DNA of 64,000 bases from an uncultured Candidatus Saccharibacteria bacterium (GCA_964401135.1 CAYNXC010000002.1:112975-176974), one strand, 5' to 3'. Shown: positions 23,784 to 58,536, counted from the stretch's first letter. Notes: generated by a model from the letters alone, not told the origin. Translations and numbers: made by a program.

Positions 23784-23785
23784 AG

Positions 23786-24055
23786 CTACTTCTCCGCATA
23801 GAGGCGGTTCTTAAGTTGGCGGAAATTATGGAACAGACTTTGGATGGGGACTTCAATTGTTTTGTCTCCCCAGAAGTCGCTGATAGCTGTTTCAATTCCT
23901 TCCGTCGCGGCAAACACAAAGTCCATCCTCTTGTCGCTTGTACGCTCCAAACCGACCAATTTGAATTGGAGCGTGAGCAGCGTTGCTGCCAAGCCAATAT
24001 CACTGATGAATACTTTTTGCTCTGTGCTTGCCATACTCTGATTCTTGCAAGCCAA
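23786..24055 (-). CDS. hypothetical small protein of element (strand choice tentative; alternative + ORF 23816-24067)
   Basis: co-orientation with flanking minus-strand genes. Confidence 0.3.
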   Translation of the reverse strand: MACKNQSMASTEQKVFISDIGLAATLLTLQFKLVGLERTSDKRMDFVFAATEGIETAISDFWGDKTIEVPIQSLFHNFRQLKNRLYAEK

Positions 24056-24163
24056 GTCCGTACCTAGATATCTCCATAGATACTTTCCAAAAGAGAAAAC
24101 ACTCCCAGAAATGAGAGTGTCTTTTTTACTTGTCCACAGTAGCTATTGAGTACCTATGGGTAC

Positions 24164-24871
24164 CTATCCGATTTTGATGATTTCTATCCGAGGGTTGAGT
24201 CTGTAGCCGCTCCCTTGTTTCGCTTCAATGAGTTTGAGTGAACCTTTTAAGTCCAGCTCGTCAGCAGTTGCTTTATTGAGCTTTCCAAACTCATTGCGCA
24301 ATCGTGCCGATGTCATATCAAGTTCTGATGCCATATCCTGCGTACTTAACTCGTAGTCAGCATTAGGATTGTCAATAAGATATTTGAAAACTTTGAAAGG
24401 CGCTCCATTTCGTGCCATAGAGTATGATTTTTCTTTCGTGTCCTTGAAAACAATCCCTTCGTCTTTGTAGTACAGAACCAATTTGTCTATTGGTGTTTGA
24501 GTAGAGACAACAGACTTTTGCTTATTCACAAATGCCGCAATCTTCTTCGGGTCAATCGTTATACGCCACGCGGTTTCTATGGAGTCGAGCATTTCCTCGT
24601 CGTTTTTTCGCCAGTTTTCTATATCTGCCTCTGATATCTCGTTGAAGTGCCATTCATTTTCTCCGCTCGTTCGCTCCATTTGTCCTTTGCATTGTTCGTG
24701 ATTGCTTACGCCGTGTTTGGATAGAAGCGAAAATCCCAGCATTAAATCGTGCAAGGTAATACCTTTCGCATCAAACATTTTTGTCGGTACATACACGACA
24801 CTTTTTTCTTTATTAAAATCTACACGCGAGTAGTCGTGAATGACTTTTGCGATATCCATCTCCATTGCCAT
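24164..24871 (-). CDS. hypothetical protein of element, possible C-terminal DNA-binding domain
   Basis: 235-aa ORF divergent from xis-like gene; no firm motif. Confidence 0.4.
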   Translation of the reverse strand: MAMEMDIAKVIHDYSRVDFNKEKSVVYVPTKMFDAKGITLHDLMLGFSLLSKHGVSNHEQCKGQMERTSGENEWHFNEISEADIENWRKNDEEMLDSIETAWRITIDPKKIAAFVNKQKSVVSTQTPIDKLVLYYKDEGIVFKDTKEKSYSMARNGAPFKVFKYLIDNPNADYELSTQDMASELDMTSARLRNEFGKLNKATADELDLKGSLKLIEAKQGSGYRLNPRIEIIKIG

Positions 24872-24938
24872 TTATCCAGTTTACCACAACTGGACACATT
24901 TGCTCATAGGCTTACATCGTAGTATTATGAGTATACCT

Positions 24939-25151
24939 ATGAAGAAAAGTAAGGAGGAGCAATTTTTGACTCTTCAAGAGGTCGCCAAGCGCTTGCGGGT
25001 TAGCGAGCGTTCGGTGTTTCGATATATTCACGACGGAAAGATTGAAGCCACGAAAGTGGGCTACTGGCGCATCACTGAAAGTGCTTTGGCAAAGTTTTTG
25101 AAAGACCGCTCCAATCTGAACAAGTCGCCGCGTAAGAAGTCGAAAAAGTAA
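24939..25151 (+). CDS. xis: excisionase-family HTH DNA-binding protein (MerR/Xis-like HTH_17); start at MKKSKEEQ
   Basis: LTLQEVAKRLRVSERSVFRYIHDGKIEATKVGYWRI matches excisionase/HTH_17 pattern. Confidence 0.7.
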   Translation: MKKSKEEQFLTLQEVAKRLRVSERSVFRYIHDGKIEATKVGYWRITESALAKFLKDRSNLNKSPRKKSKK

Positions 25152-25176
25152 CCTCGTTTTTTGAAATGGAAATGTA

Positions 25177-27687: not shown

Positions 27688-27689
27688 TT

Positions 27690-30113: not shown

Positions 30114-31459
30114 CCAAGAACATTATGAACCTCACCACTGAACAAAAGAAGGAACTGGAATCTTACTTGACGACATATCGAGACGTGCCAATTGTCGAGA
30201 ATGACGGTATGCAAGAATCATACGCATCCTTTGATGATAAGCGTGTTGCTGCAACAGTTGAGATAAAGAAGCTGGTTGATGATTTTCTGCGCGGCGGTCT
30301 TTCTGTTGCCGAGTTCAAGGAACAAAGCGATGCAATGAGTCGCAAGTTTTCATATTGGGGGTTCAAAGGTTTTAGCGGACAGATGCAGCTCAACCAGTAC
30401 GCAAACAATATCGAAGACGCAGAACAAGAGCAGCGTCTTAAGGAAGCTATTGCATTGCCCGCAACTCTCGATGAGGCGGTAGCGAAAATAAACACTTTCG
30501 CGGAGTATATGCGGGAGCTGAAAACAAAAACCGATAATCCCAAGAGTATCCCGCGTATCAACCAGTCTTTTATGCTCTCGTACTTCTGGGAGATGCAAAG
30601 CCCTGAACTCTATCCTGTGTACTTCGGTTCAATGAAGAACGTGTTGGAAAACCTGGGCTTTGACTTCAAGAGCCAAGAGACACCAGGAGACGAGTACCGA
30701 TACTTTGCAGAGATTTGCTACGCAGTTCGTGAGTTCTTTGAACAGAGCGGAATGCAGGAAACACACCCGATATGGTACGTCGAACACGTTATCTGGCACT
30801 ACTTCAAAAAGCAGAATACGGAGATTGAGACAGAGGTAAAACAAGCAGTGCCAAGCAAAATCAGAATCGGAAAAACACCAGAAGAAAGTTGGACACCACC
30901 TATCATTGGCGACCTTGAACAATTGGCGCTCAATCAAGAAACCGAATGGTCAAAATTGCGTGGGCTAAAACCTGAAAAAGCGTTTGAGACCAAGCTACGT
31001 TATCTGTTTACCATTCTTGGATACAACACCACCGAGCTTGGACAAGGTAGAGGCAGAGAGCCAGACGGTATTACTATCTCCAATGACGGTAACGCTGGCT
31101 ATTACGCCATCATCTACGATGCAAAAGCACGAGAAAAGGATTACTCAATCGGTACACAAGACCGAGAGATTGTTGAATACATCAAAAACAAACAGCGTGA
31201 GTTGCAGCGCCAGCGCGTTGATAAGGTTTCTTTCTTGATTGTTTCTTCGGAGTTCACTAACAGTCCTTCACTTGAAAACTCACTCAAAGACATCTACCGA
31301 GCAACGCGAGTACCAGTGATTCTCGTACGGGCAAAAGACCTGTTGCGTATCGTCGAGCGCAAACTATCGAATGCAGATATAGACCACGTGCAGCTCGAAG
31401 ACCTGTTCCTTGAGACAGGCGTACTCACCGCAGATAAAATTGTGGACGTACTTGGATAA
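30101..31459 (+). CDS. hypothetical protein with C-terminal Mrr-like PD-(D/E)xK restriction-endonuclease fold and unrecognised ~280-aa N-terminal domain; overlaps hsdMS stop (alternative start 30125)
   Basis: C-terminal ILGYNTTELGQGRGREPDGITIS...YAIIYDAKAREK fits Mrr_cat PD...(D/E)xK pattern; N-terminal region has no recognisable motif. Confidence 0.6.
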   Translation: MGRITKNIMNLTTEQKKELESYLTTYRDVPIVENDGMQESYASFDDKRVAATVEIKKLVDDFLRGGLSVAEFKEQSDAMSRKFSYWGFKGFSGQMQLNQYANNIEDAEQEQRLKEAIALPATLDEAVAKINTFAEYMRELKTKTDNPKSIPRINQSFMLSYFWEMQSPELYPVYFGSMKNVLENLGFDFKSQETPGDEYRYFAEICYAVREFFEQSGMQETHPIWYVEHVIWHYFKKQNTEIETEVKQAVPSKIRIGKTPEESWTPPIIGDLEQLALNQETEWSKLRGLKPEKAFETKLRYLFTILGYNTTELGQGRGREPDGITISNDGNAGYYAIIYDAKAREKDYSIGTQDREIVEYIKNKQRELQRQRVDKVSFLIVSSEFTNSPSLENSLKDIYRATRVPVILVRAKDLLRIVERKLSNADIDHVQLEDLFLETGVLTADKIVDVLG

Positions 31460-31460
31460 T

Positions 31461-32273
31461 ATGAAAAAGAAAACCGCCATCATACTCATAGTTGTTGCCG
31501 CTATCATCGCCTTCATCGCGGGGGCGTGGGTTTTTATGGGCGACTATTACGAAGCTGATGAGACTGCGTACATTCCTGAAAGTTGCAACGTGCTTGCGTT
31601 CGCCGTCAACGGTTATCTTGCTACATACACCAGCGACACCACAGCAGAAGAACTCGAAATGGATGCTGTTTCGTCGTGGAATATCGCCGATGGCATCCGC
31701 CACGCAAAAGATTACCCGAACGTCAAAGCAATCCTACTTTCCGTTGATTCAAGTGGCGGAGACCCCACCACTGGTGAAGAGATAGCAAACGCTCTCAAAG
31801 CCCTAGAATTGCCTTCTGTAGCGGTTATCCGAAGCATCGGAGCATCTGCTGCATATTGGGCTGCTACAGGAGCGGATACAGTCTTTGCATCTCGTGTTTC
31901 TGATGTTGGCAGTATCGGCGTTACCGCTTCTTATCTTGATGAGACCGTTAAGAATGCAAAGGATGGCTACACACTTGTAGAACTATCATCAGCACCACAC
32001 AAAGATGCGGGTAGCCCGAACCGCGCTCTCACTGCGACAGAAAAAGCAGCTATCGTTTCCGACCTCAAGAAGATACACGAAGTATTTGTTGATGATGTTG
32101 CTGCGAATCGAAACCTTGAACGTGAGAAAGTGGCACAGCTTGCGAACGGACTCACCTATCTCGGCGTTGACGCGCTTGAGTACGGCTTGGTAGATAAACT
32201 CGGCGACTTCACTGCCGCCACTGACTACATCGCAGAACAGATTGGCGAGCCAGTGGAGTTGTGTTGGTACTAG
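31461..32273 (+). CDS. sppA: signal peptide peptidase SppA-like (S49 / ClpP-fold) with N-terminal TM anchor
   Basis: TM helix AIILIVVAAIIAFIAG, S49 core ILLSVDSSGGDP...VIRSIGASAAYWAA. Confidence 0.75.
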   Translation: MKKKTAIILIVVAAIIAFIAGAWVFMGDYYEADETAYIPESCNVLAFAVNGYLATYTSDTTAEELEMDAVSSWNIADGIRHAKDYPNVKAILLSVDSSGGDPTTGEEIANALKALELPSVAVIRSIGASAAYWAATGADTVFASRVSDVGSIGVTASYLDETVKNAKDGYTLVELSSAPHKDAGSPNRALTATEKAAIVSDLKKIHEVFVDDVAANRNLEREKVAQLANGLTYLGVDALEYGLVDKLGDFTAATDYIAEQIGEPVELCWY

Positions 32274-39503: not shown

Positions 39504-40202
39504 ATGGGATCGGCTCAACTTACAGAGCAAATACGAGTAGCGCTTGCTACTGGTAAACGCAAGGAGGAGATTTACCAAGAGCTACTCGCTCAAGGGACTA
39601 CTCTCACGGCAATTGAGGCAGGCTTTGACTCCCTTATACAAGAGACTGCAAAGAGCGACTCTCACAAGTGGGCGGTACGAGTGATCGTGAGCATAGGTGC
39701 GCTCTTGGTTGCTGCTGGCATCTTCTCCTTCGTAGCGGCCAACTGGCAGGAGATTGGGCGCATGGCCAAGGTTGGCATCGTGCTTACAGCGATGGCTGTC
39801 TCATACGGGCTCGGGTTCTATTTAAAAGAGTATCGCAGTTATGCCCGCTCTGGTGAGGCACTCATACTCCTTGGAGCTATTAGCTATGGCGCGGGGATCT
39901 TTCTTGTTGCACAACTCTTTCATGTGCAGGTTGAGTGGCCGGATGGTTTCCTACTCTGGATGCTCGGTACTCTGGCGATGGCCATTGCCATTGACTCCTA
40001 CCTTCTCTACTACTTAAGTCTACCGCTCGGATTCGCTGGATTGGTGGGGCTTCCTTCTATTATGTTTGAACTCTTTTGGTCGCGTGGCATCTCCGCTACT
40101 TTTATCTCGATATCCCTCCTTATCATCTCTGCCCTTTGTACCTTTGCTACTGGATGGATTATAAGGCGGAGAATGCCCGATGAATTAAAGCAACTCTACT
40201 AG
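39504..40202 (+). CDS. DUF2157-family integral membrane protein
   Basis: multi-TM architecture, first gene of conserved DUF2157/DUF4401/GDYXXLXY triad. Confidence 0.6.
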   Translation: MGSAQLTEQIRVALATGKRKEEIYQELLAQGTTLTAIEAGFDSLIQETAKSDSHKWAVRVIVSIGALLVAAGIFSFVAANWQEIGRMAKVGIVLTAMAVSYGLGFYLKEYRSYARSGEALILLGAISYGAGIFLVAQLFHVQVEWPDGFLLWMLGTLAMAIAIDSYLLYYLSLPLGFAGLVGLPSIMFELFWSRGISATFISISLLIISALCTFATGWIIRRRMPDELKQLY

Positions 40203-40206
40203 TACT

Positions 40207-41334
40207 ATGTCCGCACTCGGCTTCATCCCATTCTTCATCGTCATCGGACTTGCAATCCCTCTACTCTTGCTTTTCTTTGTCATCCGTTTTGTGTTTGGGA
40301 TCTTTCGTCATCGAGGTGGCACTTCCGTGAAGAGCGAGTGGCATCTCATGGTTGCCAACTCTCGCGAGGACGCGGTGAGCCAAGCATTTTTCTTCCTCTC
40401 CTTCCTATCTCTCTGTATGATACTCCTCCATATCAATCAAGAGCTAGATTACCTGCTCTCATCGCAGACGATATTCCTCATCTCCTCCATTGTAGGGCTC
40501 GCCGGTGCTTACTGGCTCAAAAATGTATACCTTTTGGTGGGCTCCTTGGCAGGTGTGACGCTCTGGTGGGGAGCGCAAGCAGCGCTCTGGGCTAGTGAAA
40601 GAGTGGGAGACATTGCTCTCTCTTCCATTACCATCGTCAGCGGTATCGGTCTCATTACTTTGCTTTTTTATGCGCTTGGTAGATTGCATGAGTGGTTCCC
40701 CAAAGCAAAACGCTTTGCGCTCACCTACCTAGTTCTCGGCGTAGTTCCTGTCACTGCCCTTCTCTTCTTTTTATCCACGGGCATTGGATTAGAGGCTTTA
40801 GAAGATATGACAAGAGGAACATCGATGCTCAATACTTGGCAGGTACTTTTCTCCTTTGTAGTGATTGGGATCGCGCTTGTGGTGACACTCACGGTTATCA
40901 CCATTAAGCGTCTCATATACCCAGGAGAACTTGCGGCACTCATTGTGCTCGTGGCACTCTTAGGGAGCATCGCCTTCCTTCCCGCGCAGACTTTGGTGGC
41001 GAAGGGGGACTCATACTCATATTCGCGTACACTCACGAGTACGGGCATTATTTGGGCGAGCATCTTTAACATCGCACTTCTTGCCGAGTTGGTGGGGATC
41101 GTGTTTATGGGTTACGCACGCCGCGCAACAGGGCTCATCAATCTCGGTGCCTTGGCACTCTTCATCTTTATTTTCATAAAATACTTTGACTGGTTCTTTA
41201 GTTATATAAATAAGAGCGTATTTTTTATCGGCGCGGGCGTTCTCCTCTTTGCACTCGGCTGGCTGATGGAGCGGGGGAGGCGGCGTATGATCGCAACACT
41301 TAAGAGCACTGAAAATCAACCCTCAACACTATGA
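40207..41334 (+). CDS. DUF4401-family polytopic membrane protein
   Basis: ~10 TM helices, second gene of triad, 4-nt gap to previous gene. Confidence 0.6.
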   Translation: MSALGFIPFFIVIGLAIPLLLLFFVIRFVFGIFRHRGGTSVKSEWHLMVANSREDAVSQAFFFLSFLSLCMILLHINQELDYLLSSQTIFLISSIVGLAGAYWLKNVYLLVGSLAGVTLWWGAQAALWASERVGDIALSSITIVSGIGLITLLFYALGRLHEWFPKAKRFALTYLVLGVVPVTALLFFLSTGIGLEALEDMTRGTSMLNTWQVLFSFVVIGIALVVTLTVITIKRLIYPGELAALIVLVALLGSIAFLPAQTLVAKGDSYSYSRTLTSTGIIWASIFNIALLAELVGIVFMGYARRATGLINLGALALFIFIFIKYFDWFFSYINKSVFFIGAGVLLFALGWLMERGRRRMIATLKSTENQPSTL

Positions 41335-41921
41335 TACCTACGAGTACAAAATTCTTTCTCGCCTTTGCGTTGCAGGTTATTGTGATTCTTGTACTTGTAC
41401 TTGTGAAGCTCTCTGTCTTAGAAAGTGGCACTGAAGTTCTTTTGCGTATCGCCCCTGTAGACCCACGAGATCCTCTGCGTGGAGACTATGTAACCTTCCA
41501 GTATGAAATTTCACAGGTAGACTCATTTCTAGTAAGGGGTGATAATCTCCGTACTCTACACAATGGTGATGACCTCTATGTGGTGCTACAAGAAGGTAAT
41601 CCATATTGGCACATTAGTTACGCAAGTACCGAGAGGCCCAATACAAACGAGAGTCAGATTTTTTTGAAGGGAAAGATAGTGCGGGGGGCACGGAGTCCAC
41701 TAGAAGAATCTCAGACAGGAACCAGCACTCAAATAGCACAGTCAGTAAAAATTGTGGATGACTTAACACTCTCGTATGGGATGGAGCAATACTTTATTCC
41801 CGAGGGAAAAGGGAATAGTTTTAATTTTTGGGACAAAGAAGTGGGGATGCGCATTAAGGTAGATGCAAACGGCAAAGCTGTCCCTGATCAATTGTTTGTT
41901 GACGGAAAAAGGTGGCCGTAG
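41331..41921 (+). CDS. GDYXXLXY-domain protein (N-terminal TM anchor)
   Basis: motif GDYVTFQY after the N-terminal TM; 4-nt overlap with upstream gene. Confidence 0.65.
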   Translation: MIPTSTKFFLAFALQVIVILVLVLVKLSVLESGTEVLLRIAPVDPRDPLRGDYVTFQYEISQVDSFLVRGDNLRTLHNGDDLYVVLQEGNPYWHISYASTERPNTNESQIFLKGKIVRGARSPLEESQTGTSTQIAQSVKIVDDLTLSYGMEQYFIPEGKGNSFNFWDKEVGMRIKVDANGKAVPDQLFVDGKRWP

Positions 41922-43842: not shown

Positions 43843-43871
43843 TTGACTTTCTTGTCATTTGACTTTATAAT
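43843..43871 (+). promoter_or_regulatory. consensus sigma-70-type promoter for the 1437-aa gene
   Basis: TTGACT - 17 nt - TATAAT, followed by AGGAG RBS 10 nt upstream of ATG 43948. Confidence 0.65.
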
Positions 43872-43947
43872 CCCGTCCAGAAATGCACCTTTACATCAAG
43901 GGTGATAATAAACAAAATAGAACTGAAAAGACTGAAAGGAGACAGGA

Positions 43948-46900
43948 ATGGAGATAGAATCGGTAGGTATTTGCTGCGGTTCTTCAACCGTAGCTGGAGT
44001 GAGCTTAGATGGAAGATTTGTTGAATCTAAGCTACGGCACAATGGAGATGTTGCTGATACAGCCCAAGAAATTCTCAATATTCTTTCACCCTCCCCAAAT
44101 GCAAAAATTGTTATCACGGGACGGGCGCGTCAAGCTTTTTCCAACTATCCCTATGTGACGGAGCCAGAAGCTCTTCAACGAGCTCTCAAAGAGTTCGTAT
44201 CAGAGGAGTATCCTGAAGCTGTCGTCAGCTTTGGTGGACAGACGATTCTTGCGTATGAAGTTGATACGCAAGGGTATATTGTTCGTTCACATTCGTTCAA
44301 CAAGTGTGGTAGTGGGACTGGAGAATTCATGATCCAGCAGATTGGCAGGCTCGGCTTTACTTCGCTTACCCATGCGATGGATGCCGCAAACGATCCTTTG
44401 TCGTACGCCAATCCGTATGTACCAGCGAGTCGTTGTAGTGTATTCTGCAAATCTGACTGTACTCATGCAGCAAACGAAGGTAAGGCAAGCACAAGCCAGA
44501 TCACAGCCGGTCTATGCCTTATGGTTGCTCAAAAAATCGCAGAACTTGCAGGTAAGATAGAAGCAAGATGTCTCTGGCTTATTGGAGGAGGCTCGGCACT
44601 TGGACCAGTACGGTCATATCTTGAGGATCTCGGATTTCGAGTCACTATACCTCCTCATGCAGAACATTTTGAAGCGTGGGGAGCCGCACTCCTTGGTGCT
44701 GACGATGACGAAAGAGCGTGCCAGAAACAATTTATGGCAAGTGAAAAAAGCGATTCTTTTCCTCGATTGCCGCCACTAGAAAATTTTTCACACCTCGTTA
44801 CCTACAAAGAGGCACTGCGTGGGGAAGCAGAAGCTAACGATCAGTGTATCCTCTCAATTGATGTTGGATCAACCACGACTAAGGCTGCATTACTGCGACT
44901 TGATGACTTAAGTCTCCTTGCTTCTCACTATGGTTATACACATGGGATGCCTCACAAGGCAATGCTTGAGTGCTTTGCCGAACTTGACAAATTGATTACT
45001 GTTCCGATTCAGATTGTCGGTATCAATGTAACTGGTTCGGGGCGTTATCTTGCCGAAGCATTTTTGACCGATTATGCTCTACAAGATAAAAATGCCGCGC
45101 AGATCTCTGTTGTGAATGAGATCACTTGTCATGCAACTGCTGCCGAACGTTTGAATCCAGGAGTATCATGTGTATTAGAGATTGGCGGACAGGACGCGAA
45201 ATACACATACCTAGAATCTGGAGTGCCACTTGATTTCTGCATGAATGAAGCATGTTCTGCCGGGACGGGAAGCTTTCTTGCTGAGGTTGCAAAAGAATTG
45301 TTTCAGATCCAGGATCCTAATAAGATCGCGCCAACTGCTCTTGAGGGTAAGAGGCCGATCAAGTTTGGAGAACAATGCTCCGCATTCATTGAGAGCGACA
45401 TCAATTCAGCGCTTCGCGAAGGTGCTTTACAGGAAGATGTTATGGCTGGATTGTGTTATTCTGTCTGCTACAACTATGTCAATCGTGTTGTTGGCAATCG
45501 TCCGATCAGAGGAACCATTTCTCTCCAAGGTGGCACTGCCTATAATCCTGCATTCTGTCTTGCAATGGCGGGAGTCCTGTCTCAGAGCGCGATATTAGGG
45601 AAGGACGATCGTATTATTGTATCGCGCGAAGCGGGGCTCATGGGAGTGATAGGCGGAGCAGCTTTCCTTGTTGAAAAAATTCGACAAGGAGGCTATAAGC
45701 TTATACATACGACACTTGCCACCCTTCTCACCAAAGAACTCAAAGAAGCTTCGAGTTTCGAATGCAGAGGATGCACATACAAATGTTCCATAAAGCGATT
45801 CGAGATTACGAGTGAGGGAAAATCTACAAAAGTTCCTTTTGGTGGATTCTGTCGCAAGTACGATACAATTCGCCGCGGAAGTAAGCCATTTTCGTCGGAT
45901 GATTATGACTTTACTGCACTACGAGACCAGATGTTGTTTGGAGTCTATTCTAACCTCGGCCAATCGCTTTCTAGTACAGCTCCGTCCATTGGAGTTCTTG
46001 GAAATTTCTTTGAGCTCAAGTATCTGCCTCTCTTCTCAACGATCTTCGCTAGCCTTGGTATGAGGACTGTGTTGGCGGATGCTGTGGATCAAAATGGTCT
46101 ACAACGCCAAAGCGGTTCCTATTGTTGGCCAGTTGGACGATCCCACGGACTTATGGAGAATCTTATACAAAAAAATCCAGATTTCTTCTGGATGCCACAT
46201 GTCCATACTGTGGAGTCCTCTGATATTACGCGAGATCAATGCTGCCCACTTGCGCAAGGCACTCCGTTCTTGCTCAAGACGGCTTTCCCAGAAATTCCTC
46301 CACATAAGATTATGGATCCGTATCTGTGTATCACCGATGATATCTCCGATCTCCTCACAGCATTTACTCCCCTCGCAAAACAAATAGGAGTGGGGCGAAG
46401 AAAGCTGAAGAAGGCGATAGAGGCGGGTATTGAAGCTCAGCGATGTTTTACACTAGCGTGCAAACAGAAGGGCCGCGAACTTCTTGAAGAACTTGCGCAA
46501 TGTCCTGGAGAAATAGCTTTTGTTATGGTCGGAAGACCATATAATGCTCTCTCAAACCACTTAGGAAGTAATAAGGGTCTTTCTCGTAAAATTGCTTCGA
46601 TGGGTATCCGCGTCATTCCACTCGATTTTCTTCCTCTGGATGAGGTTGAAGATGAGCCGGATATGTACTGGTCAGCGGGGCAAGACATATTACGCGCGGC
46701 GCGATTCATTGCTCAACGGAAAGAATTGTATGGAGTATTCCTTACCAACTTCAGTTGTGGACCAGATTCTTTCCTTGTCACTAAGTATCGTCGCTATCTC
46801 GATGGTAAGCCATCTCTTATTCTTGAGTTCGATGCACATACGGCGAATGCCGGATTTGACACGAGAATTGAAGCATTTCATGAAATCGTGCAAAGCTTCA

Positions 46901-48261
46901 TCCGCGTAAGTGCTTCGGGACACAGGCCAGAGAAGATCCTTGCTTTTGATGGCTCTCCTTTGGAGACAGATCCAGAGGATATCAGAGGCCAGAAGATGAG
47001 AGTCGTTATTCCTGACATGGGAAGCTTCTATTCACAGGCGCTTTCCGCTACCTTAGAAAGTTTCGGAGTTAGGACAACACTGTTGCCTCAACCGGATCAT
47101 GCCACTCTCGCTTTGGGGCGTCGACATGCAAGTTGTAAAGAATGTCTGCCCTACAATCTGACGATTGGGAGTTTCCTTCATTATCTGGAGCATGAGCGTG
47201 AGTCTGGAGAATCCACCGCACTCTTTATGCCAGCTGGATCAGGGCCATGTCGTTTTGGGCAGTATAGTATTCACACACGGCTTCTACTCCATGAGTTGGG
47301 ATATTCCGATGTCACAGTACTCTCGCCTTCGGATAGTACCGCGTATGCAGGACTTGGCCCAAGCTTTCGGGAGAGAGCATGGATCGCTCTCGTCGCTGGC
47401 TCTCTCGTTGAGAACATTAGTTGTGCTCTTCAAACTCTTGCAGTGGATGTTGAGGAAGCCAAGACGATACTCCATACTTCTTGGGGTAGAATTGTAGAGA
47501 AAATACGCGGGGGAGTACAGATGAAGAACATATCAAGTTTCCTCTCTCTCCTCCAAAAAGAGGCTCAGATCCTTAAGACAATCCCACTCCATAACTCTCT
47601 GGACAAGGTGCCGAAGGTACTTATCACAGGTGAGATCTATGTACGCCTCTCTGACTTTACCACCTTGCCGATTGTCCGTTATCTTGGACAGCATGGCATC
47701 GTAGCAGTCAAGGAACCTGCTACAAACTGGTTGAAGTATGTTGATTATATTTATCAGCATGCGTATGTCTTACAAAAACAAAGTATGAAGGCGCGCTTCC
47801 TCCATTTTGTTAAGAGGAAGGTACAAGTACTCTACGAAAGGCTTATCACAGACGCTCTCTCTATGTCCGGACTATGTGCAGATACAAGCGGGAATATAGA
47901 AGAGATTATAAAATGGGCTCAGCCTTATCTCTCCGATCGTCTATGGGGAGAGGCTATCCTTACTATAGGCAGTGCACGATTTGAATCTCTCGGACGATAC
48001 GCGGGAGTTGTTGTGGTCGGCCCGTTTGGCTGTATGCCAACACGGCTTGCAAGCGGCATCCTAACCTACACAATGTCGGTAGAGGATAAAGTCGCATCTG
48101 ATCCTCATTGTATCCCTGAAGCTTTGAGAAAATCATGTTCTCACTGTCCCTTCATCACCCTTGAGACTGACGGAGTTGCACTCTCCCCAATCACCTGTTC
48201 GTCACTTGACGCATTTTGTGTCGTAGCGAAAAGGGTACACGGAGTAATGCAGAAATCGTGA
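43948..48261 (+). CDS. 1437-aa CoA-substrate-specific enzyme activase-family fusion: two ASKHA (BadF/BadG/BcrA/BcrD) ATPase domains + DUF2229 / 2-hydroxyacyl-CoA dehydratase (HgdB/FldB)-like C-terminal region
   Basis: two acetate/sugar-kinase-like modules (ILSIDVGSTTTKAALL; LEIGGQDAKYTYLE; CSAGTGSFLAEVAKEL), then Cys-rich dehydratase-like region. Confidence 0.75.
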   Translation: MEIESVGICCGSSTVAGVSLDGRFVESKLRHNGDVADTAQEILNILSPSPNAKIVITGRARQAFSNYPYVTEPEALQRALKEFVSEEYPEAVVSFGGQTILAYEVDTQGYIVRSHSFNKCGSGTGEFMIQQIGRLGFTSLTHAMDAANDPLSYANPYVPASRCSVFCKSDCTHAANEGKASTSQITAGLCLMVAQKIAELAGKIEARCLWLIGGGSALGPVRSYLEDLGFRVTIPPHAEHFEAWGAALLGADDDERACQKQFMASEKSDSFPRLPPLENFSHLVTYKEALRGEAEANDQCILSIDVGSTTTKAALLRLDDLSLLASHYGYTHGMPHKAMLECFAELDKLITVPIQIVGINVTGSGRYLAEAFLTDYALQDKNAAQISVVNEITCHATAAERLNPGVSCVLEIGGQDAKYTYLESGVPLDFCMNEACSAGTGSFLAEVAKELFQIQDPNKIAPTALEGKRPIKFGEQCSAFIESDINSALREGALQEDVMAGLCYSVCYNYVNRVVGNRPIRGTISLQGGTAYNPAFCLAMAGVLSQSAILGKDDRIIVSREAGLMGVIGGAAFLVEKIRQGGYKLIHTTLATLLTKELKEASSFECRGCTYKCSIKRFEITSEGKSTKVPFGGFCRKYDTIRRGSKPFSSDDYDFTALRDQMLFGVYSNLGQSLSSTAPSIGVLGNFFELKYLPLFSTIFASLGMRTVLADAVDQNGLQRQSGSYCWPVGRSHGLMENLIQKNPDFFWMPHVHTVESSDITRDQCCPLAQGTPFLLKTAFPEIPPHKIMDPYLCITDDISDLLTAFTPLAKQIGVGRRKLKKAIEAGIEAQRCFTLACKQKGRELLEELAQCPGEIAFVMVGRPYNALSNHLGSNKGLSRKIASMGIRVIPLDFLPLDEVEDEPDMYWSAGQDILRAARFIAQRKELYGVFLTNFSCGPDSFLVTKYRRYLDGKPSLILEFDAHTANAGFDTRIEAFHEIVQSFIRVSASGHRPEKILAFDGSPLETDPEDIRGQKMRVVIPDMGSFYSQALSATLESFGVRTTLLPQPDHATLALGRRHASCKECLPYNLTIGSFLHYLEHERESGESTALFMPAGSGPCRFGQYSIHTRLLLHELGYSDVTVLSPSDSTAYAGLGPSFRERAWIALVAGSLVENISCALQTLAVDVEEAKTILHTSWGRIVEKIRGGVQMKNISSFLSLLQKEAQILKTIPLHNSLDKVPKVLITGEIYVRLSDFTTLPIVRYLGQHGIVAVKEPATNWLKYVDYIYQHAYVLQKQSMKARFLHFVKRKVQVLYERLITDALSMSGLCADTSGNIEEIIKWAQPYLSDRLWGEAILTIGSARFESLGRYAGVVVVGPFGCMPTRLASGILTYTMSVEDKVASDPHCIPEALRKSCSHCPFITLETDGVALSPITCSSLDAFCVVAKRVHGVMQKS

Positions 48262-48267
48262 TATATT

Positions 48268-48309
48268 CCCGTTCCATTCTCATAATTTGAGAGTGGGACG
48301 GGTTTTTTT
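48268..48309 (+). terminator. intrinsic terminator after the 1437-aa gene
   Basis: 14-bp stem cccgttccattctc/gagagtgggacggg (two G-U), loop ataattt, then ttttttt. Confidence 0.75.
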
Positions 48310-48343
48310 ATTTTTCATTATTTTGTGCTACAATCCGCACACA

Positions 48344-48724
48344 ATGAAGTCATGGATTGCCATCTTTGTGCTCTCTCTAATGCTTGCAGTGAGTGTAGTG
48401 GGAGTACTGCACAGTAGCGAGTCTGGGCACATGGGGCACGGCTCCGGGTGCGTTTTTAATTTCGGCGGGCAGGAGTTATGTATTACTGATATTGCGGCTA
48501 CTCTCTCTGAAATACGAGATATCCTACCTACTGCTCTAGTATTTTTTGCAGCATCTCTTTCTATCGCATTTATCTATACATCTTTCCTCCGGGCACCACA
48601 GTCTCATCCAATTCGTGGATATACTCGTACATGGCTCACGCGGCTCCGAGGTCTTTGTCCGCCGCACCATCTCTCTCTCGCATTTTCATCAGGAGTAGTT
48701 CATCCGAAACTCTTTCTTTCCTAG
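48344..48724 (+). CDS. small membrane protein with His/Met-rich motif (SGHMGHGSG), possible metal-binding
   Basis: extended -10 TGcTACAAT upstream; signal/TM then HMGHGSGC; ORF-track start 48287 lies inside the terminator so it is rejected. Confidence 0.5.
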   Translation: MKSWIAIFVLSLMLAVSVVGVLHSSESGHMGHGSGCVFNFGGQELCITDIAATLSEIRDILPTALVFFAASLSIAFIYTSFLRAPQSHPIRGYTRTWLTRLRGLCPPHHLSLAFSSGVVHPKLFLS

Positions 48725-48755
48725 CCACGATTCTTTATCAGCTAGGTAAAAAAGT

Positions 48756-50102
48756 ATGTCTTCACACACACAAGAGCACACACTCCACGTGCAGGGTATG
48801 CACTGTCGTGGATGCGAGGTGCTCATAGAAAGGAAGTTTGGAGAAATTGATGGTATAAGTTCTGTGCGGGCACATCAGCATCGGGGTACCGTCTCTTTTC
48901 GCAGTTCTCGCGATATCCCCTTAGATGTTCTCAATGCAGCGATTACTGCCGATGGTTACCATGTCACTCACGAACCACTTACTGTCGTACGACAAAAGAA
49001 TACGGCGCTTGATTACATGGAGATCGGAGCGGTCGCGATGATTCTCTTCTCTTCGTACCTGCTCTTCTCAAAACTTGGTCTCATTCCTGAAGTGTCTCTA
49101 TCGGAGAATATGAGCTACGGGGTCATCTTTATTATTGGCCTCGTTGCCGCCTTCTCTACTTGTATGGCAGTCTCAGGAGGATTACTCCTTGCCATCAGTG
49201 CCCGTGCAGCAGAAAAAAATCCGCACGCAACGCGCCGTGAACGATTGGTCCCACACCTCTACTTCAACATCGGCCGCATCATCTCCTACACTTTTTTAGG
49301 AGGAGCTATTGGAGCACTCGGTTCTGTCATTGCACTCTCGCCTGCAATCAATGGGATTGTTACGGTGCTTGCCTCCCTTGTTATGATCGTGCTTGGATTC
49401 CAAATTCTGAATCTCTTCCCTCGCCTCTCGTATCTGATTCCCAAAATGCCCAAGTTACTTGGGCACCGCATCCACGCCTTGGCAGGTCGCGATGGGGGTC
49501 GGGGATCATTCTTATTGGGAGCCGGAACCTTTTTCCTCCCCTGCGGGTTTACCCAGGCACTCCAGCTCTATGTGCTTGCACAAGGGTCGGCACTCACCGG
49601 AGCACTCACGATGCTTACCTTTGCACTCGGTACTCTACCCGCCTTTCTTGCTGTTGGAGCAGTATCACAAGCTGAAAGTGGCACATTCCGTCGTTACTTA
49701 CTCAAAACGGCGGGAGTGCTCGCGCTTACTCTTGGTATCGTCAACACGAGTGCAGGATTTACTCTCTTAGGAGTTGGCGGCATTACAAAGGGTACTGGTA
49801 ATGCTGTTACGATAACAGAGGAAGGTGGTACGCAAGTTGTTGAGATGAAGGTGCGTGGTCTCTCGTACTCTCCCTCACAATTTGTTGTCAAAAAAGGCGT
49901 TCCTGTTGAATGGCGCATTGATGGCACTGGTGCCGCAGGGTGCGCACGAGTCATTGTTGCCCCTAAGCTTGGTCTCTCCACCTACTTGAAGGCGGACGGC
50001 CCGACTATTGTTACCTTCACTCCAGAACAAGAGGGGACTATAGAGTTCAGTTGTAGTATGGGGATGACAACTCGTGGTGCAAAGTTTATCGTTAAATCAT
50101 AA
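48756..50102 (+). CDS. HMA (CxxC) domain + DsbD/CcdA-like transmembrane domain + C-terminal cupredoxin-like domain protein
   Basis: GMHCRGC metal-binding motif, 6 TM region with paired Cys, C-terminal beta-sandwich with Cys/His/Met candidates. Confidence 0.65.
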
Positions 50103-50107
50103 TCTGT

Positions 50108-52282
50108 ATGAAAACTATTCAATTCCGCATCCCCGATATGCACTGTGCTTCGTGCGTGACTAATAATGAGTCTGCACTCAAAGCACTTTCCGGGGTGCAG
50201 TCAGCATCAGTCAACTTTGCAACACGAGCGGCAACGGTTGAATATAATGAGGCGCAGGTATCAGAAGAAAAGCTCCATGAAGCAGTCATACAGAATGGGT
50301 ACCATGTAGCGCCTCTCCACAATGATGGAGCGAGTTCACATGAGCATCACAATGAGGTGAAGAGTGCACGGTTCCGCGCATTTTCTGCTATCCTTCTTGC
50401 TCTCCCGCCACTTATCCTCTCAATGGGAGCTATCCGTTTTGGCACGCTCTTTGTCGGTTTAGATCTGAGCATCTGGATCCAAACACTACTCTCTTCATTC
50501 GTTATCCTGATTATTGGAAGCGAGTTCCATATCCGTATGTTACGACAAGCACGGAGATTCCGCGCCGATATGGATACACTCATCTCTGTTGGTACTCTCT
50601 CTGCACTCTTGCTCTCGCTCTGGTCACTCACACAGGGGGATAGCGAGTCGCTCTACTTTGAGACGGGGGCAGTAATCACAGCTCTTATTCTCCTCGGGCG
50701 CTACTTTGAAGCGCTCTCGCGTGGGAGGGCGAGTGCGGCAATAGAAAAGTTGATGGCACTTGGCGCAAAAACTGCTCGTGTGCTTCGCGACGGTGAGGAG
50801 CGTGACATCCCGATAGAAGAGATACACATTGGAGATCAGATCCGCGTGCGACCAGGAGAAAAAATTCCAGTAGATGGGATTATTGTTGATGGAGTCTCCA
50901 GCGTTGATGAGTCTGCCTTGACGGGCGAGAGCATGCCTGTTGAGAAAAAAAATGGTGACACAGTGCTCGGTGCAAGCGTCAACCAATATGGTTCCTTCGT
51001 AGTACGAGCAGAAAAGATTGGTGCAGATTCAGTACTCGGTCAGATGGTAACAATGGTGGCAGAAGCGCAGAGTGCCAAGGCGCCGATACAAAAACTTGCC
51101 GATCGTGTCTCGGGCATCTTTGTTCCGATAGTCATGCTCATTGCACTGATTACCGCGGTACTCTGGTTTATAGTTACCAGAGATGTAGGAGCATCACTCA
51201 TCCCCGCAGTTGCCGTATTGGTTATTGCATGCCCGTGCGCGCTTGGGTTAGCCACTCCTACCGCAATTATGGTGGGGACAGGCACCGGTGCACGACGGGG
51301 GATACTGATTAAAAATGGAGAGTCATTGGAGAAGGGGAAAAATATAGACACAGTAGTCTTTGACAAAACAGGTACCTTAACTGAAGGTCATCCTGGAGTC
51401 ACCAATGTAGATTGTGCTACAGGAGTACAAGAAGCAGAGATGCTTGCACTTGCGGCAAGTCTAGAGATACTTTCGGAACATCCGCTTGCTCGCGCTGTTG
51501 TAGAGTATGCAAAGACGCACCACATTACCTTACATACAGCGACAGAGTTTGCGAGTATTCCTGGTCGTGGTGTACGGGGGAACATAGGGCCTCATACGAT
51601 CTCTGTTACGAGTGTCAGAGATGCGGAGACGCGGGGAGTCAATTTTTCTGCGTATCGTGAGCAGATACGACTCCGTGAGACAGAGGCAAAGACTGTTCTC
51701 GTTGTCGTTCGTGGAGAAGAGTACCTCGGGTCAATCTCTGTTGCAGACACAGTGAAGCCAGAATCTCACCGTGCTATTGCCGCGCTACAGAAGCGAGGCA
51801 TCCGTACCGTGATGATAACGGGCGATAATCAATTGACGGCCGAAGCGATTGCGCGAGCGGTTGGTATTACTGAAGTGTTTGCAGAAGTACTCCCACAAGA
51901 TAAGCGCAATAAGGTACAGGAACTCCAACAGAAAGGTCGGCATGTTGCTTTTGTCGGTGACGGTATTAATGACGCGCCCGCGCTCGCTCAATCTGATCTG
52001 GGGATTGCTTTAGGTACAGGGACTGACATTGCCATTGAGACCGGTGATATTGTCTTGGTAAAAGGGAGCCCTCTGAAGGCGCTTGAGGGGCTCATGCTCT
52101 CACAAAAGACCTTCCGCATTATCAAGCAAAATCTCTTTTGGGCTTTTGCTTACAATGTAGCAGCGATACCTCTTGCGGCACTCGGTTTTCTCAATCCTAT
52201 GATCGCTGCCGCAGCAATGGCCTTCTCATCTATCTCTGTCATTCTCAATTCACTTCGTCTCCGTATCCCTGTGTTATACTAG
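50108..52282 (+). CDS. copA: copper-translocating P1B-type ATPase
   Basis: N-terminal HMA MHCASC, TM CPC motif ([12 protein letters not shown]), DKTGTLT phosphorylation site, GDGINDAP. Confidence 0.9.
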
Positions 52283-55135: not shown

Positions 55136-57133
55136 ATGGCAAGAGCCCTCACACTTGGGAATGGGAGTATTCTCGTTGGTGTTGATCACTGTGGAGAAGT
55201 GCGTGATTTTTACTATCCCTATGTTGGTCTTGAGAATCAGGTGGGAGGAAATTCAGTACACCGCATTGGTGTCTTTGCTGATAATAGGCTTGCATGGCTC
55301 TCCGATCCATCGTGGAAGGTTAGCGTGGGAAGCAAAGAAGAATCTCTCTCAAGTGCAATTAGTGCCGAGAATCGAGAACTTGGTGTCTCTCTAACTTCAA
55401 ATGATCTCGTCTACAACGAGCGTAATGTTTTTATTCGCAAAGTGACAGTTAAAAATCTTCAAGGAATCAGCCGTCCGATAAAAATATTCTTCGCCCACCA
55501 ATTTGAGATAGCCGAGTCGCATCGCGCACACACTGCATACTTTGATCCAAGTACACACACAATCATCCACTACCGCGGACGGAGGGTGTTTCTTATCAAC
55601 GCAAAGATTGAGGGGCGAGTCTTTGATGATTACTCAACTGGCGTTTTTGACTCAGAGGGGAAGGAGGGGACACATAAGGATGCCGAGGATGGTCAACTAG
55701 CAAAGAATCCAATTGAGCACGGATCCGCCGATTCCGTAATTGGGCTCTCTGCTGACTTTGGTCCAGGTGAGGAAAAGACGGTTTATTATTGGGTCTGTGT
55801 GGCCAAAACACATCGCGCCGTTAAGTATTTAAATGTAATGGTACAAGAGAAGAGTCCTGCGCATATGATTAAGACAACGGAAGACTACTGGCGCGCGTGG
55901 ATTAATCGACAGAATTTCACCTTCCATGGTCTCTCTCCAGAGGTTGTCGCGCTCTTTAAAAAATCACTTCTTGTCATACGAGCACATACCGATAAAAAGG
56001 GTGCAATCATTGCCTCCAGTGACTCCAGTATGATGCAACAAGGTGGAAAGGATAATTATTGTTACATCTGGCACCGTGATGCTGCCTTCTCTTCTATGGC
56101 GCTTGATCGTGTTGGCGACTTTACTGTATGTCAACGTTTTTTTGAGTTTTCAAATGAAGTGATCAGTGACCAGGGCTACTTTATGCATAAGTACTGTCCA
56201 GATAAGTCACTTGGGAGCTCGTGGCATGGATGGATAGATAAGGACACGCATAATGCGCGACTTCCCATCCAAGAGGATGAGACTGCACTCACTCTCATTG
56301 CACTTGCTCGGCATTACGAATTTACTAAAGATTTGGAGTTTATAGAACTTATCTATAATTCACTCATCCGTCGCGCGGCAAATTTTCTTGTGTCGTATCG
56401 CGATGAGACGACGGGGCTCCCACTTCCCAGCAACGACTTGTGGGAAGAAAAGTTTGGAATACATACATTTACTGCCGCAAGCGTGTACGCTGCATTGCTG
56501 GCCGCATCTCACTTCGCAGAAATCCTTGGCAAAGCAAAGAGCCAAATACGCTTTGCGGAGACAGCAAAAGAGATTAAGGAGGCAATCCTGAAGCATCTCT
56601 ACAACGAAGAGGGAGGATACTTTGCAAAGTCACTCACTATCCGTGAGGGCGCACTCTTACGTGATGATACTGTGGATGCATCGAGCGCGTATGGGATTTT
56701 TGCTTTCGGAGTACTTCCTACTGATGACCTCCGCCTTATCCGTGCGATGAAAAAAACCGAGGAGGAACTTTCTGTGCGTACTCCCATTGGTGGTGTAGCA
56801 CGCTACCAAGGTGATCGTTACTACCGCCCCGGTGGCGCTGCCCCAGGTAATCCATGGGTTGTCACCACGCTCTGGCTTGCTGAATACTTTATCTCTATAG
56901 CACGCAACGATCATGATCTTGATCGTGTCCGCACTATTTTCTCTTGGGTTGTATCTCGTGCAGATAAGAGTGGAGTGCTCCCAGAACAAATCCACCCCTT
57001 CAGCGGCGCGGCTCTCTCTGCTGCTCCGCTCGTGTGGAGCCACGCATCTTTCATCCACGCGGTAGTAAGCTACTTAGACAAACTAGAAGAGTTAGGGATT
57101 TGCAAGGCGTGCGATCCACTGAATGGATCTTAG
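55136..57133 (+). CDS. bacterial glucoamylase/glucodextranase-type GH15 enzyme with N-terminal beta-sandwich domain
   Basis: GH15 catalytic signatures YIWHRDAAF, GYFMHKYCPD...SWHGWID, LWEEKFG. Confidence 0.75.
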   Translation: MARALTLGNGSILVGVDHCGEVRDFYYPYVGLENQVGGNSVHRIGVFADNRLAWLSDPSWKVSVGSKEESLSSAISAENRELGVSLTSNDLVYNERNVFIRKVTVKNLQGISRPIKIFFAHQFEIAESHRAHTAYFDPSTHTIIHYRGRRVFLINAKIEGRVFDDYSTGVFDSEGKEGTHKDAEDGQLAKNPIEHGSADSVIGLSADFGPGEEKTVYYWVCVAKTHRAVKYLNVMVQEKSPAHMIKTTEDYWRAWINRQNFTFHGLSPEVVALFKKSLLVIRAHTDKKGAIIASSDSSMMQQGGKDNYCYIWHRDAAFSSMALDRVGDFTVCQRFFEFSNEVISDQGYFMHKYCPDKSLGSSWHGWIDKDTHNARLPIQEDETALTLIALARHYEFTKDLEFIELIYNSLIRRAANFLVSYRDETTGLPLPSNDLWEEKFGIHTFTAASVYAALLAASHFAEILGKAKSQIRFAETAKEIKEAILKHLYNEEGGYFAKSLTIREGALLRDDTVDASSAYGIFAFGVLPTDDLRLIRAMKKTEEELSVRTPIGGVARYQGDRYYRPGGAAPGNPWVVTTLWLAEYFISIARNDHDLDRVRTIFSWVVSRADKSGVLPEQIHPFSGAALSAAPLVWSHASFIHAVVSYLDKLEELGICKACDPLNGS

Positions 57134-57153
57134 GCCGTGCTACACTAGAGCCG

Positions 57154-58536
57154 ATGCAGGCAAAAGGAGCAGTACTCGTCATCTTTGGCGCGACAGGAGA
57201 CCTCGCAGGGCGTAAGCTTTTTCCTGCGCTTCTTAATCTGAGCGGAAGAAATCAGTTGCCAGAGGAATTTAATATTATTGCACTGGGGCGAAAGCCTCAT
57301 TCCGAGCACTCGTTTCGTGTGGTAGTACGGGAAAAGTTAGACGAGCATGGTCATGGGTTTGGAAACGCTACCGTGGAACAATTTCTCTCTCGTATCCGTT
57401 ATGTGGAATGTGACATCACTCACGCTACGGCCTACACAACGCTATCTACCCAACTTTCTTTCTTTGGCGAATGTGACCGCTTGTTTTATCTAGCAGTCCC
57501 TCCACTCTTGTATGAGAATATAGTGGAACAACTTTCTTTATCAAAGCTTGTATCACGCGGGCATGGGAAAAAACTATCACGCATCCTGATTGAGAAACCT
57601 TTTGGTAGAGATGCCACGACAGCAGAGGCCTTGGATGTAGCTCTAGGAGCACTCTTTCTTGAGGAGCATATCTTCCGCATAGATCACTACCTTGCTAAGG
57701 AGACGCTCCAAAATATTCTCGCATTCCGTTTTTCTAACACACTCTTTGAGCCTGTGTGGAATGCCGAGTTCATAGAGTCTGTACACATCCTGCTCTCTGA
57801 GCGGGGCGCAGTAGAGACTCGTGCCGCTTTCTACTCCGATACAGGAGCACTCAAAGATGTAGGACAAAATCATCTACTCCAGATGCTCGCGCTCATTGCG
57901 ATGGAACGACCGCAGGACTTAGATCCGGAACATATTCGGGCGGCACGCGCTACCGTGCTCAAGTCGCTTATCCCGGTCACTCGTCAAGATGTTCTGACTA
58001 GAGTATCACGAGGACGCTGTAGCTCCTGTGTGCTTGGAGCGAGTGGCGCAGAGACCTACTTTAAGGTACAAACTTCTCTCTCCATCCCGCGTTGGGAGGG
58101 AGTTCCTTTTATCTTAGAGAGCGGCAAGTACCTACAGGAAGACCGCGTACAAATTTGTGTTTCCTTCAAGCCGGGGACTTCTTGTTTCCCCATTTTGGGA
58201 ACTTGCCCAGTGGGGAATCGTCTAACTTTTACGATACAGCCAGAAGAAGGAATCACGCTCACCTTTTTAGCAAAGAAGCCTGGCTTCACGATTGAGCTGG
58301 AAGAGCGAACCCTCGTCCTCTCTTACGCCAATAAAGAGGCACAAGGTGTATCACCAAGTGCGTATGAGAGAATCCTCTATGATGGCATTCGCGGTGACAC
58401 AACGCTCTTCACCTCAACCGAAGAAGTACTTGCCTCATGGCGCTTTATTAGCTCGGTGCTCTCAGTGTGGGAGGCCGTGCCACTCGTGCTCTATACACAG
58501 GGAGCTAGAGAGCTTGGGTACACTATTGTACAATGA
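57154..58536 (+). CDS. zwf: glucose-6-phosphate 1-dehydrogenase
   Basis: VIFGATGDLAGRKLFPAL NADP site, EKPFGRD, RIDHYLAKE active-site motif. Confidence 0.9.
   Translation: MQAKGAVLVIFGATGDLAGRKLFPALLNLSGRNQLPEEFNIIALGRKPHSEHSFRVVVREKLDEHGHGFGNATVEQFLSRIRYVECDITHATAYTTLSTQLSFFGECDRLFYLAVPPLLYENIVEQLSLSKLVSRGHGKKLSRILIEKPFGRDATTAEALDVALGALFLEEHIFRIDHYLAKETLQNILAFRFSNTLFEPVWNAEFIESVHILLSERGAVETRAAFYSDTGALKDVGQNHLLQMLALIAMERPQDLDPEHIRAARATVLKSLIPVTRQDVLTRVSRGRCSSCVLGASGAETYFKVQTSLSIPRWEGVPFILESGKYLQEDRVQICVSFKPGTSCFPILGTCPVGNRLTFTIQPEEGITLTFLAKKPGFTIELEERTLVLSYANKEAQGVSPSAYERILYDGIRGDTTLFTSTEEVLASWRFISSVLSVWEAVPLVLYTQGARELGYTIVQ

Follow-up and report, generated by a model that had tools for sequence, protein, structure and literature searches.

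Bacterial plasmalogen synthase has been described in a split form, PlsA plus PlsR, in Clostridium perfringens (CPE1194/1195), with modules named Act1, Act2, Red1 and Red2, and as the product of a single plsA gene of 4248–4920 bp in Enterococcus faecalis (EF1327/Q835P9), L. cremoris and B. longum subsp. suis (PMC12838417; PMC9702350). Glycerol ester reductase (Ger), a ‘modified PlsA’ (T. maritima Tmari_0479/AGL49404; D. alkenivorans SHJ90043), is a single ~150-kDa chain from anaerobes with a Pfam architecture of the BBD... type. Ger2 (SHK01260.1) and inactive homologues from T. geofontis and Kuenenia are also known. Expression of PlsA and Ger in E. coli gave ether lipids from diacyl lipids, in the case of Ger anaerobically only (PMC12838417, PMC13159169), and the two enzymes are not distinguishable from sequence at present (PMC13274423, PMC11868695). 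Here we describe a 1437-amino-acid (aa) protein encoded in a stretch of 64,000 nucleotides (nt) from an uncultured Candidatus Saccharibacteria bacterium (GCA_964401135.1, CAYNXC010000002.1:112975-176974; the whole stretch is referred to as the window), which shares the module order of these enzymes and which sequence comparison places in the PlsA/Ger superfamily (Table 1).

Homology to PlsA and PlsR, and relation to Ger

Reference PlsA and PlsR sequences were recovered by matching published cloning primers. The C. perfringens forward primer matched Clostridium sp. LIBA-8841 (L002), in which plsA (975 aa) and plsR (420 aa) together cover 4199 bp, identical to the length published for the fragment, and the E. 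faecalis primer led to a 1415-aa open reading frame (ORF) of 4248 bp, as published. These references were considered valid because identities between E. faecalis and Clostridium (50% for PlsA, 41% for PlsR) match those published (48–55% and 41–42%; PMC12838417). The window protein aligns with E. faecalis PlsA almost end to end (aa 7–1367 on 6–1361; 26% identity, E 3.6e-90), with Clostridium PlsA at 28% identity (E 1e-76) and, over aa 1019–1281, with Clostridium PlsR at 21% identity (E 6e-8), PlsA and PlsR lying in the same order along the protein. Collinear homology to these verified enzymes, together with 14 common cysteines, makes assignment to the PlsA/Ger superfamily secure at the level of sequence. 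The domains used to define this superfamily are present in the published BBD... order (two PF01869, PF09989 and a second reductase domain). When compared with the cut-off applied in the field (at least 30% identity, E <=1e-30 to 1e-50), E values are within the limit, while identity to verified PlsA is 26–28%. NCBIfam contains no PlsA- or Ger-specific model, so that no curated membership call is possible. The first-pass annotation had called the substrate unknown, overlooking the published work on PlsA, with which the protein is collinear along its whole length.

Module order is that of single-chain PlsA (1415 aa in E. faecalis vs 1437 aa here) and of the split C. perfringens system, where the same modules are divided between two chains, and all 14 core cysteines of PlsA are common to the window protein. 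However, PlsA orthologues are 41–55% identical among themselves and the window protein is only 24–28% identical to PlsA; the DUF2229 score is 275 bits in PlsA vs 128 bits here; and the ATP motifs, canonical in both activase modules of PlsA, are changed in Act1, where Asp is lost and C9, C167 and C171 are gained. Identification as a PlsA orthologue is ruled out by the low identity (24–28%, vs a published orthologue range of 41–55%) and by placement in a separate clade.

Relatives were examined as the best 120 of 4545 proteins listed at E <=1e-10 in a collection of 5.8 billion proteins. Nearly all of these 120 are full-length relatives of ~1430 aa, and all 120 are 36–57% identical to the window protein and only 24–29% identical to PlsA. 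The C-terminal half alone matched 2926 clusters (50% identity), 591 of them at E <=1e-30. Fusion of all modules into one polypeptide, initially thought unusual, is thus widespread, and the single-chain architecture is not new and is common in anaerobes.

A neighbour-joining tree of 89 aligned sequences, full-length and diverse, resolves into three groups: the PlsA type and two others designated Y and X. The window protein belongs to X, where it groups with its closest relatives in a small subclade that includes a protein carrying the NCBI label Patescibacteria. Median identities of the window protein are 37% (X), 28% (Y) and 24% (PlsA type). Conservation within X is unusually high, with identities of ~59–62% across Desulfovibrionales, Desulfurivibrio, Desulfomonile, Nitrospiraceae and Hydrogenedentes. 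Another member of X (P0082) is WP_007781896.1, which was picked up by the published Ger homologue screen and is among three Desulfosporosinus youngiae entries given as Ger homologues in the supplement of PMC13274423. Small H and D matches that follow the main D domain in Ger are also seen in the window protein at lenient thresholds. Such Pfam architecture strings were rejected as a means of discriminating Ger from PlsA, since E. faecalis PlsA is itself described in the literature as BBDH, and whether the window protein would yield an alkyl or an alkenyl product cannot be told from sequence. D. alkenivorans was absent from the 120 listed rows of a search seeded with a Desulfovibrionales X protein, and no Thermotoga or Desulfatibacillum names were found among the clusters of ten Y and X-like representatives.

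The coding sequence has no internal stop, and homologues of 1415–1455 aa span 99–100% of the protein, so that this is a single gene; a frameshift or the presence of several genes, raised as a possible artefact, was rejected on the same grounds. The expression signals proposed in the first-pass annotation are all present. The promoter (TTGACT, 17-nt spacer, TATAAT) lies in the correct orientation in the 124-bp gap between a divergent upstream gene and the ATG; as two sites with a match of at least 11/12 occur in the window on both strands, compared with 1.15 +/- 1.0 in shuffled sequences, the number of such sites is by itself not above chance. An AGGAG ribosome-binding site precedes the ATG and a strong hairpin follows the stop codon, and the gene is real, intact, well-expressed-looking and, as first annotated, monocistronic in layout. 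No transmembrane segment is predicted in the protein, nor in E. faecalis PlsA.

Table 1 Coordinates of the gene for the 1437-aa protein, its modules and signals, and of other features in the window
Feature	Position (nt)	Strand	Remarks
Serine recombinase	19036-20694	-	
RadA/KaiC-like ATPase	21606-23324	-	
HsdR, type I restriction-modification	25177-27687		
HsdM+S fusion, type I restriction-modification	27690-30113		
FokI-cleavage-domain protein	30101-31459		
Sigma-70-type promoter	43843..43871	+	TTGACT (-35), 17-nt spacer, TATAAT (-10); 11/12 consensus match alone
Ribosome-binding site, AGGAG	43937..43941	+	6 nt 5' of ATG; read from sequence
Coding sequence, subfamily X of the PlsA/Ger superfamily, putative ATP-dependent Fe-S reductase	43948..48261	+	Act1-Act2-Cys4-Red1-Red2; domains, full-length homologues
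Act1, ASKHA activase module with degenerate nucleotide site	43948..44742 (aa 1-265)	+	PDB activase matches, E 1.7e-14 to 1e-4
Act2, canonical activase module	44833..45702 (aa 296-585)	+	SIDVGSTTTK, EIGGQDAK; best Pfam stretch 304-571
Cys4 motif, C606-x2-C609-x3-C613 ... C635	45763..45852	+	Between activase and reductase halves; invariant in 120 X sequences
Red1, DUF2229 plus weak HGD-D-like tail	45985..46902 (aa ~680-985)	+	C726, C766, C937; Cys invariant, common to PlsA
Red2, PlsR-equivalent second reductase domain	46990..48258 (aa ~1015-1437)	+	C1066, C1101, C1362; PlsR alignment, Cys conservation
Intrinsic terminator	48268..48309	+	15-bp stem (48268-48302), 5-nt loop, T7 tract, dG -26.6 kcal/mol
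Copper module	48324-52282		After terminator; own extended -10 (TGcTACAAT)
Small His/Met-containing membrane ORF	48344-48724		No Pfam match
HMA-DsbD_2-cupredoxin fusion	48756-50102		Unusual fusion
CopA P-type ATPase	50108-52282		

Domain anatomy and the Act1 cysteines of subfamily X

Pfam identified BcrAD_BadFG (PF01869) in two stretches (E 3.5e-36) and DUF2229 (PF09989) at aa 687–894 (E 4.3e-37), and NCBIfam TIGR00241 (acyl-CoA dehydratase activase) scored 161 bits against a cut-off of 125, confirming two ASKHA modules joined to a Cys-bearing, reductase-like region. Act2 shows all features of an HgdC/HadI-type activase: its best PDB sequence matches are MbdQ, HadI and HgdC (E 2e-21 to 8e-19), it has the bridging-cluster cysteines C436 and C477, and both Asp residues are kept in 120/120 X sequences. 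Act1 keeps both of its bridging-cluster cysteines (C120 and C163) and is without the ATP-site Asp residues, its nucleotide site reading GICCGSST where GIDxGST is expected and FGGQT where GG(E/Q)D is expected. A canonical Asp in both activase modules is a PlsA-type feature by our own alignment reading rather than by a published criterion, and in Act1 of the window protein it is replaced (C9; GGQT vs GGED).

The changes in Act1 form a sharp signature of X. Cys takes the place of the phosphate-1 Asp (GIC.G(A/S)ST; C9 in 112/120 sequences, Ser in 3, Asp in 0), the phosphate-2 Asp is lost (GGET/GGQT), and the helix that follows the cluster-binding Cys reads RCSVFCKSDCTHA, with C167 in 120/120 and C171 in 115/120, giving a near-invariant C-x3-C-x3-C-T-H helix in X; in the window protein the altered Asp position is aa 9 and the added helix residues are aa 167, 171 and 173 (nt 43972–44469). 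Ala or Ile/Val/Met/Leu stands in place of these helix cysteines in PlsA, in group Y and in activases of solved structure (HadI, MbdP, DCCP-R), and all PDB activase matches to Act1 have D/A/V at positions 9, 167 and 171. Further cysteines conserved in X are C190, C507 and C1063. The triad is partly relaxed within the subclade from Candidate Phyla Radiation (CPR) bacteria, with Ser at position 9 in P0002 and P0012 and Ile at 171 in P0010. From the loss of both Asp residues we infer that Act1 in X would no longer be an ATPase, and it may bind an extra metal centre. A text search of the literature for the motif SVFCKSDCTHA found no match, and the Act1 Cys-triad signature of X is previously undescribed.

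The 14 core cysteines, invariant in the 120 relatives and common to Clostridium PlsA/PlsR, are distributed as two in each activase module, four in the linker and three in each of Red1 and Red2. The linker motif (Cys4), for which we infer binding of a metal, Fe-S or Zn, is also found in Clostridium PlsA. The three cysteine motifs of Red1 and Red2 are in register, at hhalign E 0.0036 (probability 9%, 277 columns), so the two look like remote paralogues with weak profile support, in a pairing that resembles by analogy the alpha/beta pair of dehydratases.

The claim that the C-terminal region resembles DUF2229 and dehydratase components held for DUF2229 and for the predicted fold, and barely for dehydratase sequence, the best match to HGD-D (PF06050; E 0.0086, 16.1 bits) being below the gathering threshold of 28.4. 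Family-profile and sequence searches of the PDB found no catalytic chains of 2-hydroxyacyl-CoA dehydratases (HAD) or benzoyl-CoA reductases (BCR), and matched only activases. AlphaFold modelling of residues 590–1437 with a 57-sequence alignment gave a predicted local distance difference test (pLDDT) score of 87.5 and a predicted template-modelling score of 0.87 (pLDDT 38 for the single-sequence version), and six Foldseek matches to the model at probability 1.00 were DCCP, BzdN/O and HadB. Identity to these HAD/BCR/DCCP structures is 10–15%. The C-terminal half is thus predicted to share the fold of HAD/BCR catalytic subunits.

Among enzymes with this fold, the HAD (HadI/HadBC, HgdC/HgdAB) and class I BCR (BzdNOPQ, MbdONPQ) systems have activases that match by sequence (HadI, HgdC and MbdQ/P; E 1e-21 to 1e-9) and, as in Red1/Red2, three-Cys cluster sites in two paralogous catalytic domains. 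Dehydratase activators are homodimers, in contrast to the fused heteromeric pseudo-dimer here, with everything in one chain, and dehydratases act on a CoA thioester, whereas the likely substrate of the window protein is the oxygen ester of a lipid. In the system of the double-cubane cluster protein DCCP and its reductase DCCP-R (6eno, 7yyl/7yzm), DCCP-R is the best PDB sequence match of Act1 (E 1.7e-14); the DCCP system is 13% identical and, unlike the chain described here, consists of separate DCCP and DCCP-R proteins.

Proposed reaction, host and alternative readings

The protein is probably an Fe-S reductase of the PlsA/Ger (BCR/HAD-type) superfamily, self-contained, driven by ATP and sensitive to oxygen, that converts what is most likely the sn-1 acyl ester of assembled glycerophospholipids to an ether bond; we hold this reading with moderate confidence. 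Its most likely role would be the anaerobic tailoring, to ether lipids, of ester phospholipids that the cell scavenges, whether from a host or from its surroundings. In a scheme modelled on that published for PlsA (PMC8788747) and on HAD/BCR activase chemistry, a low-potential donor of the ferredoxin or flavodoxin type would reduce a [4Fe-4S] cluster bridging Act1 (C120/C163) and Act2 (C436/C477), and ATP binding and hydrolysis, probably in Act2 only, would drive the electron uphill. From there the electron would reach three-Cys [4Fe-4S] clusters in Red1 and Red2, by way of the Cys4 site (C606/609/613/635) or close to it. Reduction of the sn-1 ester carbonyl would go through a ketyl-type radical, and dehydration would then give a vinyl ether (a plasmalogen, as with PlsA) or, if two further electrons are delivered, a saturated alkyl ether, as with Ger. 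The enzyme would act at the membrane surface.

The host is, from the sequences of its relatives, a Paceibacteria-type CPR bacterium: TopA encoded in the window is 63–66% identical to proteins of Candidatus Paceibacterota, Taylorbacteria, Lloydbacteria, Minisyncoccota and the Patescibacteria group, in line with the minimal metabolism ascribed to it in the first-pass annotation. The closest relatives of the enzyme are on CPR-type contigs, e.g. from 0.1-um groundwater fractions (Hainich-type samples), and copies of the protein at least 90% identical to it are encoded on a 672-kb JGI contig and a 190-kb NCBI contig. Only 12 clusters with at least 45% identity were present among the matches listed, so the gene appears to be rare in CPR bacteria, a lineage-specific trait and not a CPR hallmark. 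Homologues in ‘candidate phyla’ have been mentioned (PMC13159169), and our literature search found no paper that ties plasmalogen or Ger enzymes specifically to CPR bacteria. An inability to make membrane lipids has been ascribed to CPR bacteria (PMC7242380). Since an enzyme of this kind works on finished phospholipids, it fits a lipid-scavenging CPR cell better than would a CoA-ester fermentation enzyme, and its presence, regarded at first as unexpected in such a host, is less surprising if it acts on preformed membrane lipids.

Several observations count against a lipid ester substrate or limit how closely the known enzymes can serve as models. Identity to verified PlsA (24–28%) is under the field's rule of at least 30%, and the protein belongs to clade X, apart from clade Y and the PlsA type. 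The likeness to Ger was seen in architecture and in the homologue listing. Act1 is without the catalytic Asp residues found in PlsA, and therefore energetics may differ. The lipid-synthesis deficit is taken from the CPR literature, the genome of the host itself having been viewed within the 64-kb window. No consistently adjacent lipid gene and no conserved partner were found in 13 other neighbourhoods (CPR and other phyla).

Some of these points would also be expected if X were a paralogous group that uses the same ATP-driven Fe-S machinery for another hard reduction or dehydration, on a non-lipid or otherwise uncharacterised substrate, and had entered lists of ‘Ger homologues’ through permissive BLAST cut-offs. 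We consider this possible, although clearly the less likely case. It would account for an own clade only 23–29% identical to the PlsA type, for the missing lipid-gene synteny and for a separate signature (the Act1 Asp to Cys change, CSVFCKSDCTHA and the additional C190, C507 and C1063), and identity of ~60% across distant phyla suggests a tightly constrained, possibly different role. The three ‘Ger homologues’ of D. youngiae must, as paralogues, differ somehow, and function is said in the literature not to be assignable from sequence (PMC13274423, PMC11868695). Against this, collinearity with PlsA/PlsR is full-length and all cysteines of the catalytic half are placed identically; both functionally proven branches act on glycerolipid esters (PMC13159169, PMC12838417); and few CoA-ester or aromatic substrates are conceivable in a CPR cell, where membrane lipids are always present. 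Another alternative, a self-activating 2-hydroxyacyl-CoA dehydratase or a benzoyl-CoA-reductase-type enzyme acting on CoA thioesters, is in our view improbable. It is implied by the first-pass annotation and by database names (‘acyl-CoA dehydratase activase’, ‘CoA-substrate-specific enzyme activase’). The TIGR00241 and BcrAD_BadFG matches accord with such an enzyme, as do the best structural neighbours (HadBC, BzdNO), but the names stem from the activase domain only, HGD-D scores 16 vs 28.4 bits, the family profile finds no HAD/BCR catalytic chain and identity is 10–15%. Furthermore, the sole characterised proteins with the full architecture are lipid ester reductases, and no partner genes for amino-acid fermentation or aromatic degradation were found in the 64-kb window.

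A functional tie to the copper genes, with the enzyme acting for example as their redox partner in metal homeostasis, is very improbable. The position next to the copper module, to which the first-pass annotation drew attention, is real: the module follows immediately 3', near-identical strains keep the same order to the contig end (small ORF, HMA-DsbD_2-cupredoxin, truncated gene), and a 57%-identical homologue in another CPR genome (L003) is likewise found two genes from CopA, DUF305 and a CsoR-type repressor. No functional link follows from this, as the terminator (-26.6 kcal/mol) and a separate extended -10 element lie in between. In L003 the copper genes are on the opposite strand; of five other CPR-clade neighbourhoods this is the only one with copper genes nearby, and there are none in those from other phyla, leaving twelve examined neighbourhoods without copper genes. 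Local synteny between two related CPR genomes explains the shared adjacency, and the linkage was rejected given the separate transcription signals and the lack of recurrence beyond L003.

Reduction of lipid esters to ethers thus remains the preferred reading. A more far-reaching version, tentative and in our estimate rather unlikely, would make X a mechanistically distinct branch, with Act1 a pseudo-ATPase in which a Cys3(His) metal site (C9, C167, C171, H173) replaces Mg-ATP, resulting in an altered ATP-per-electron stoichiometry or an added redox centre. The cysteines would then be a candidate signature for formation of alkyl ethers (Ger) vs vinyl ethers (PlsA), and Patescibacteria would turn stolen host ester lipids into ether lipids.

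Neighbouring genes and implications

Neighbours of the homologues that do not recur are a CDP-alcohol phosphatidyltransferase-like gene (L003), NifU together with cysteine desulfurase (L006/L007), and DedA/VTT proteins; these occasional neighbours are suggestive. In groundwater Patescibacteria two convergent radical SAM genes, one with a BATS domain and one with a HypC-like N-terminus, lie just 3' of the homologue (L004 12546–15199; L005 8182–10835), and neither is found in the 64-kb window. The X gene of D. youngiae is flanked by genes for a B12-binding radical SAM protein (WP_007781894.1) and a GAF+Rce1-like protein (L009 4372–5976 and 10297–11532), and in Defluviitalea a GAF protein is encoded directly 5' of the X gene (L008 5409–5897). 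In Firmicutes such proteins may serve as regulators or partners, and the flanking GAF and radical SAM genes of the Firmicutes loci are absent from the CPR loci. WP_007781894.1 is not the listed Mss homologue (WP_007779067.1) and therefore provides no lipid link. Two proteins from the representative search (P0342/P0535) may reflect transfer of this enzyme type from bacteria to eukaryotes, or contamination.

Upstream of the enzyme gene, three co-directional genes (39504–41921) encode a DUF2157 membrane protein, a 375-aa protein without a family match and a GDYXXLXY protein. The trio is conserved-looking, and a GDYXXLXY gene is also upstream in a strain contig (L024). A block of low G+C content (19022–32273; 41–44% vs 47–50% elsewhere) starts at a tRNA gene (19022–19092) and includes an S49 peptidase gene in addition to the recombinase, ATPase, restriction-modification and FokI-type genes of Table 1; it looks like an integrated island with defence genes. 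Between 52518 and 61548, genes for GT4/GT5 glycogen-synthase-like proteins, GH57, GH15 glucoamylase, Zwf, 6-phosphogluconate dehydrogenase, PGI and a ROK kinase suggest that this CPR genome provides for a storage glucan and an oxidative pentose phosphate route. ORFs 55136–57133 and 57034–58536 in this block overlap by 100 nt, so the true start of Zwf is probably later.

If the proposed reaction is correct, one large and costly Fe-S/ATP enzyme would let a CPR cell chemically personalise the lipids that it scavenges, introducing ether bonds that may, for example, withstand host phospholipases or better suit anoxic, energy-poor life, and ether lipids would be expected to mark some of the ultra-small bacteria of groundwater. 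For the family, the Act1 Cys triad of X would provide a testable candidate for the discriminator between Ger and PlsA that the field says is missing (PMC13274423).

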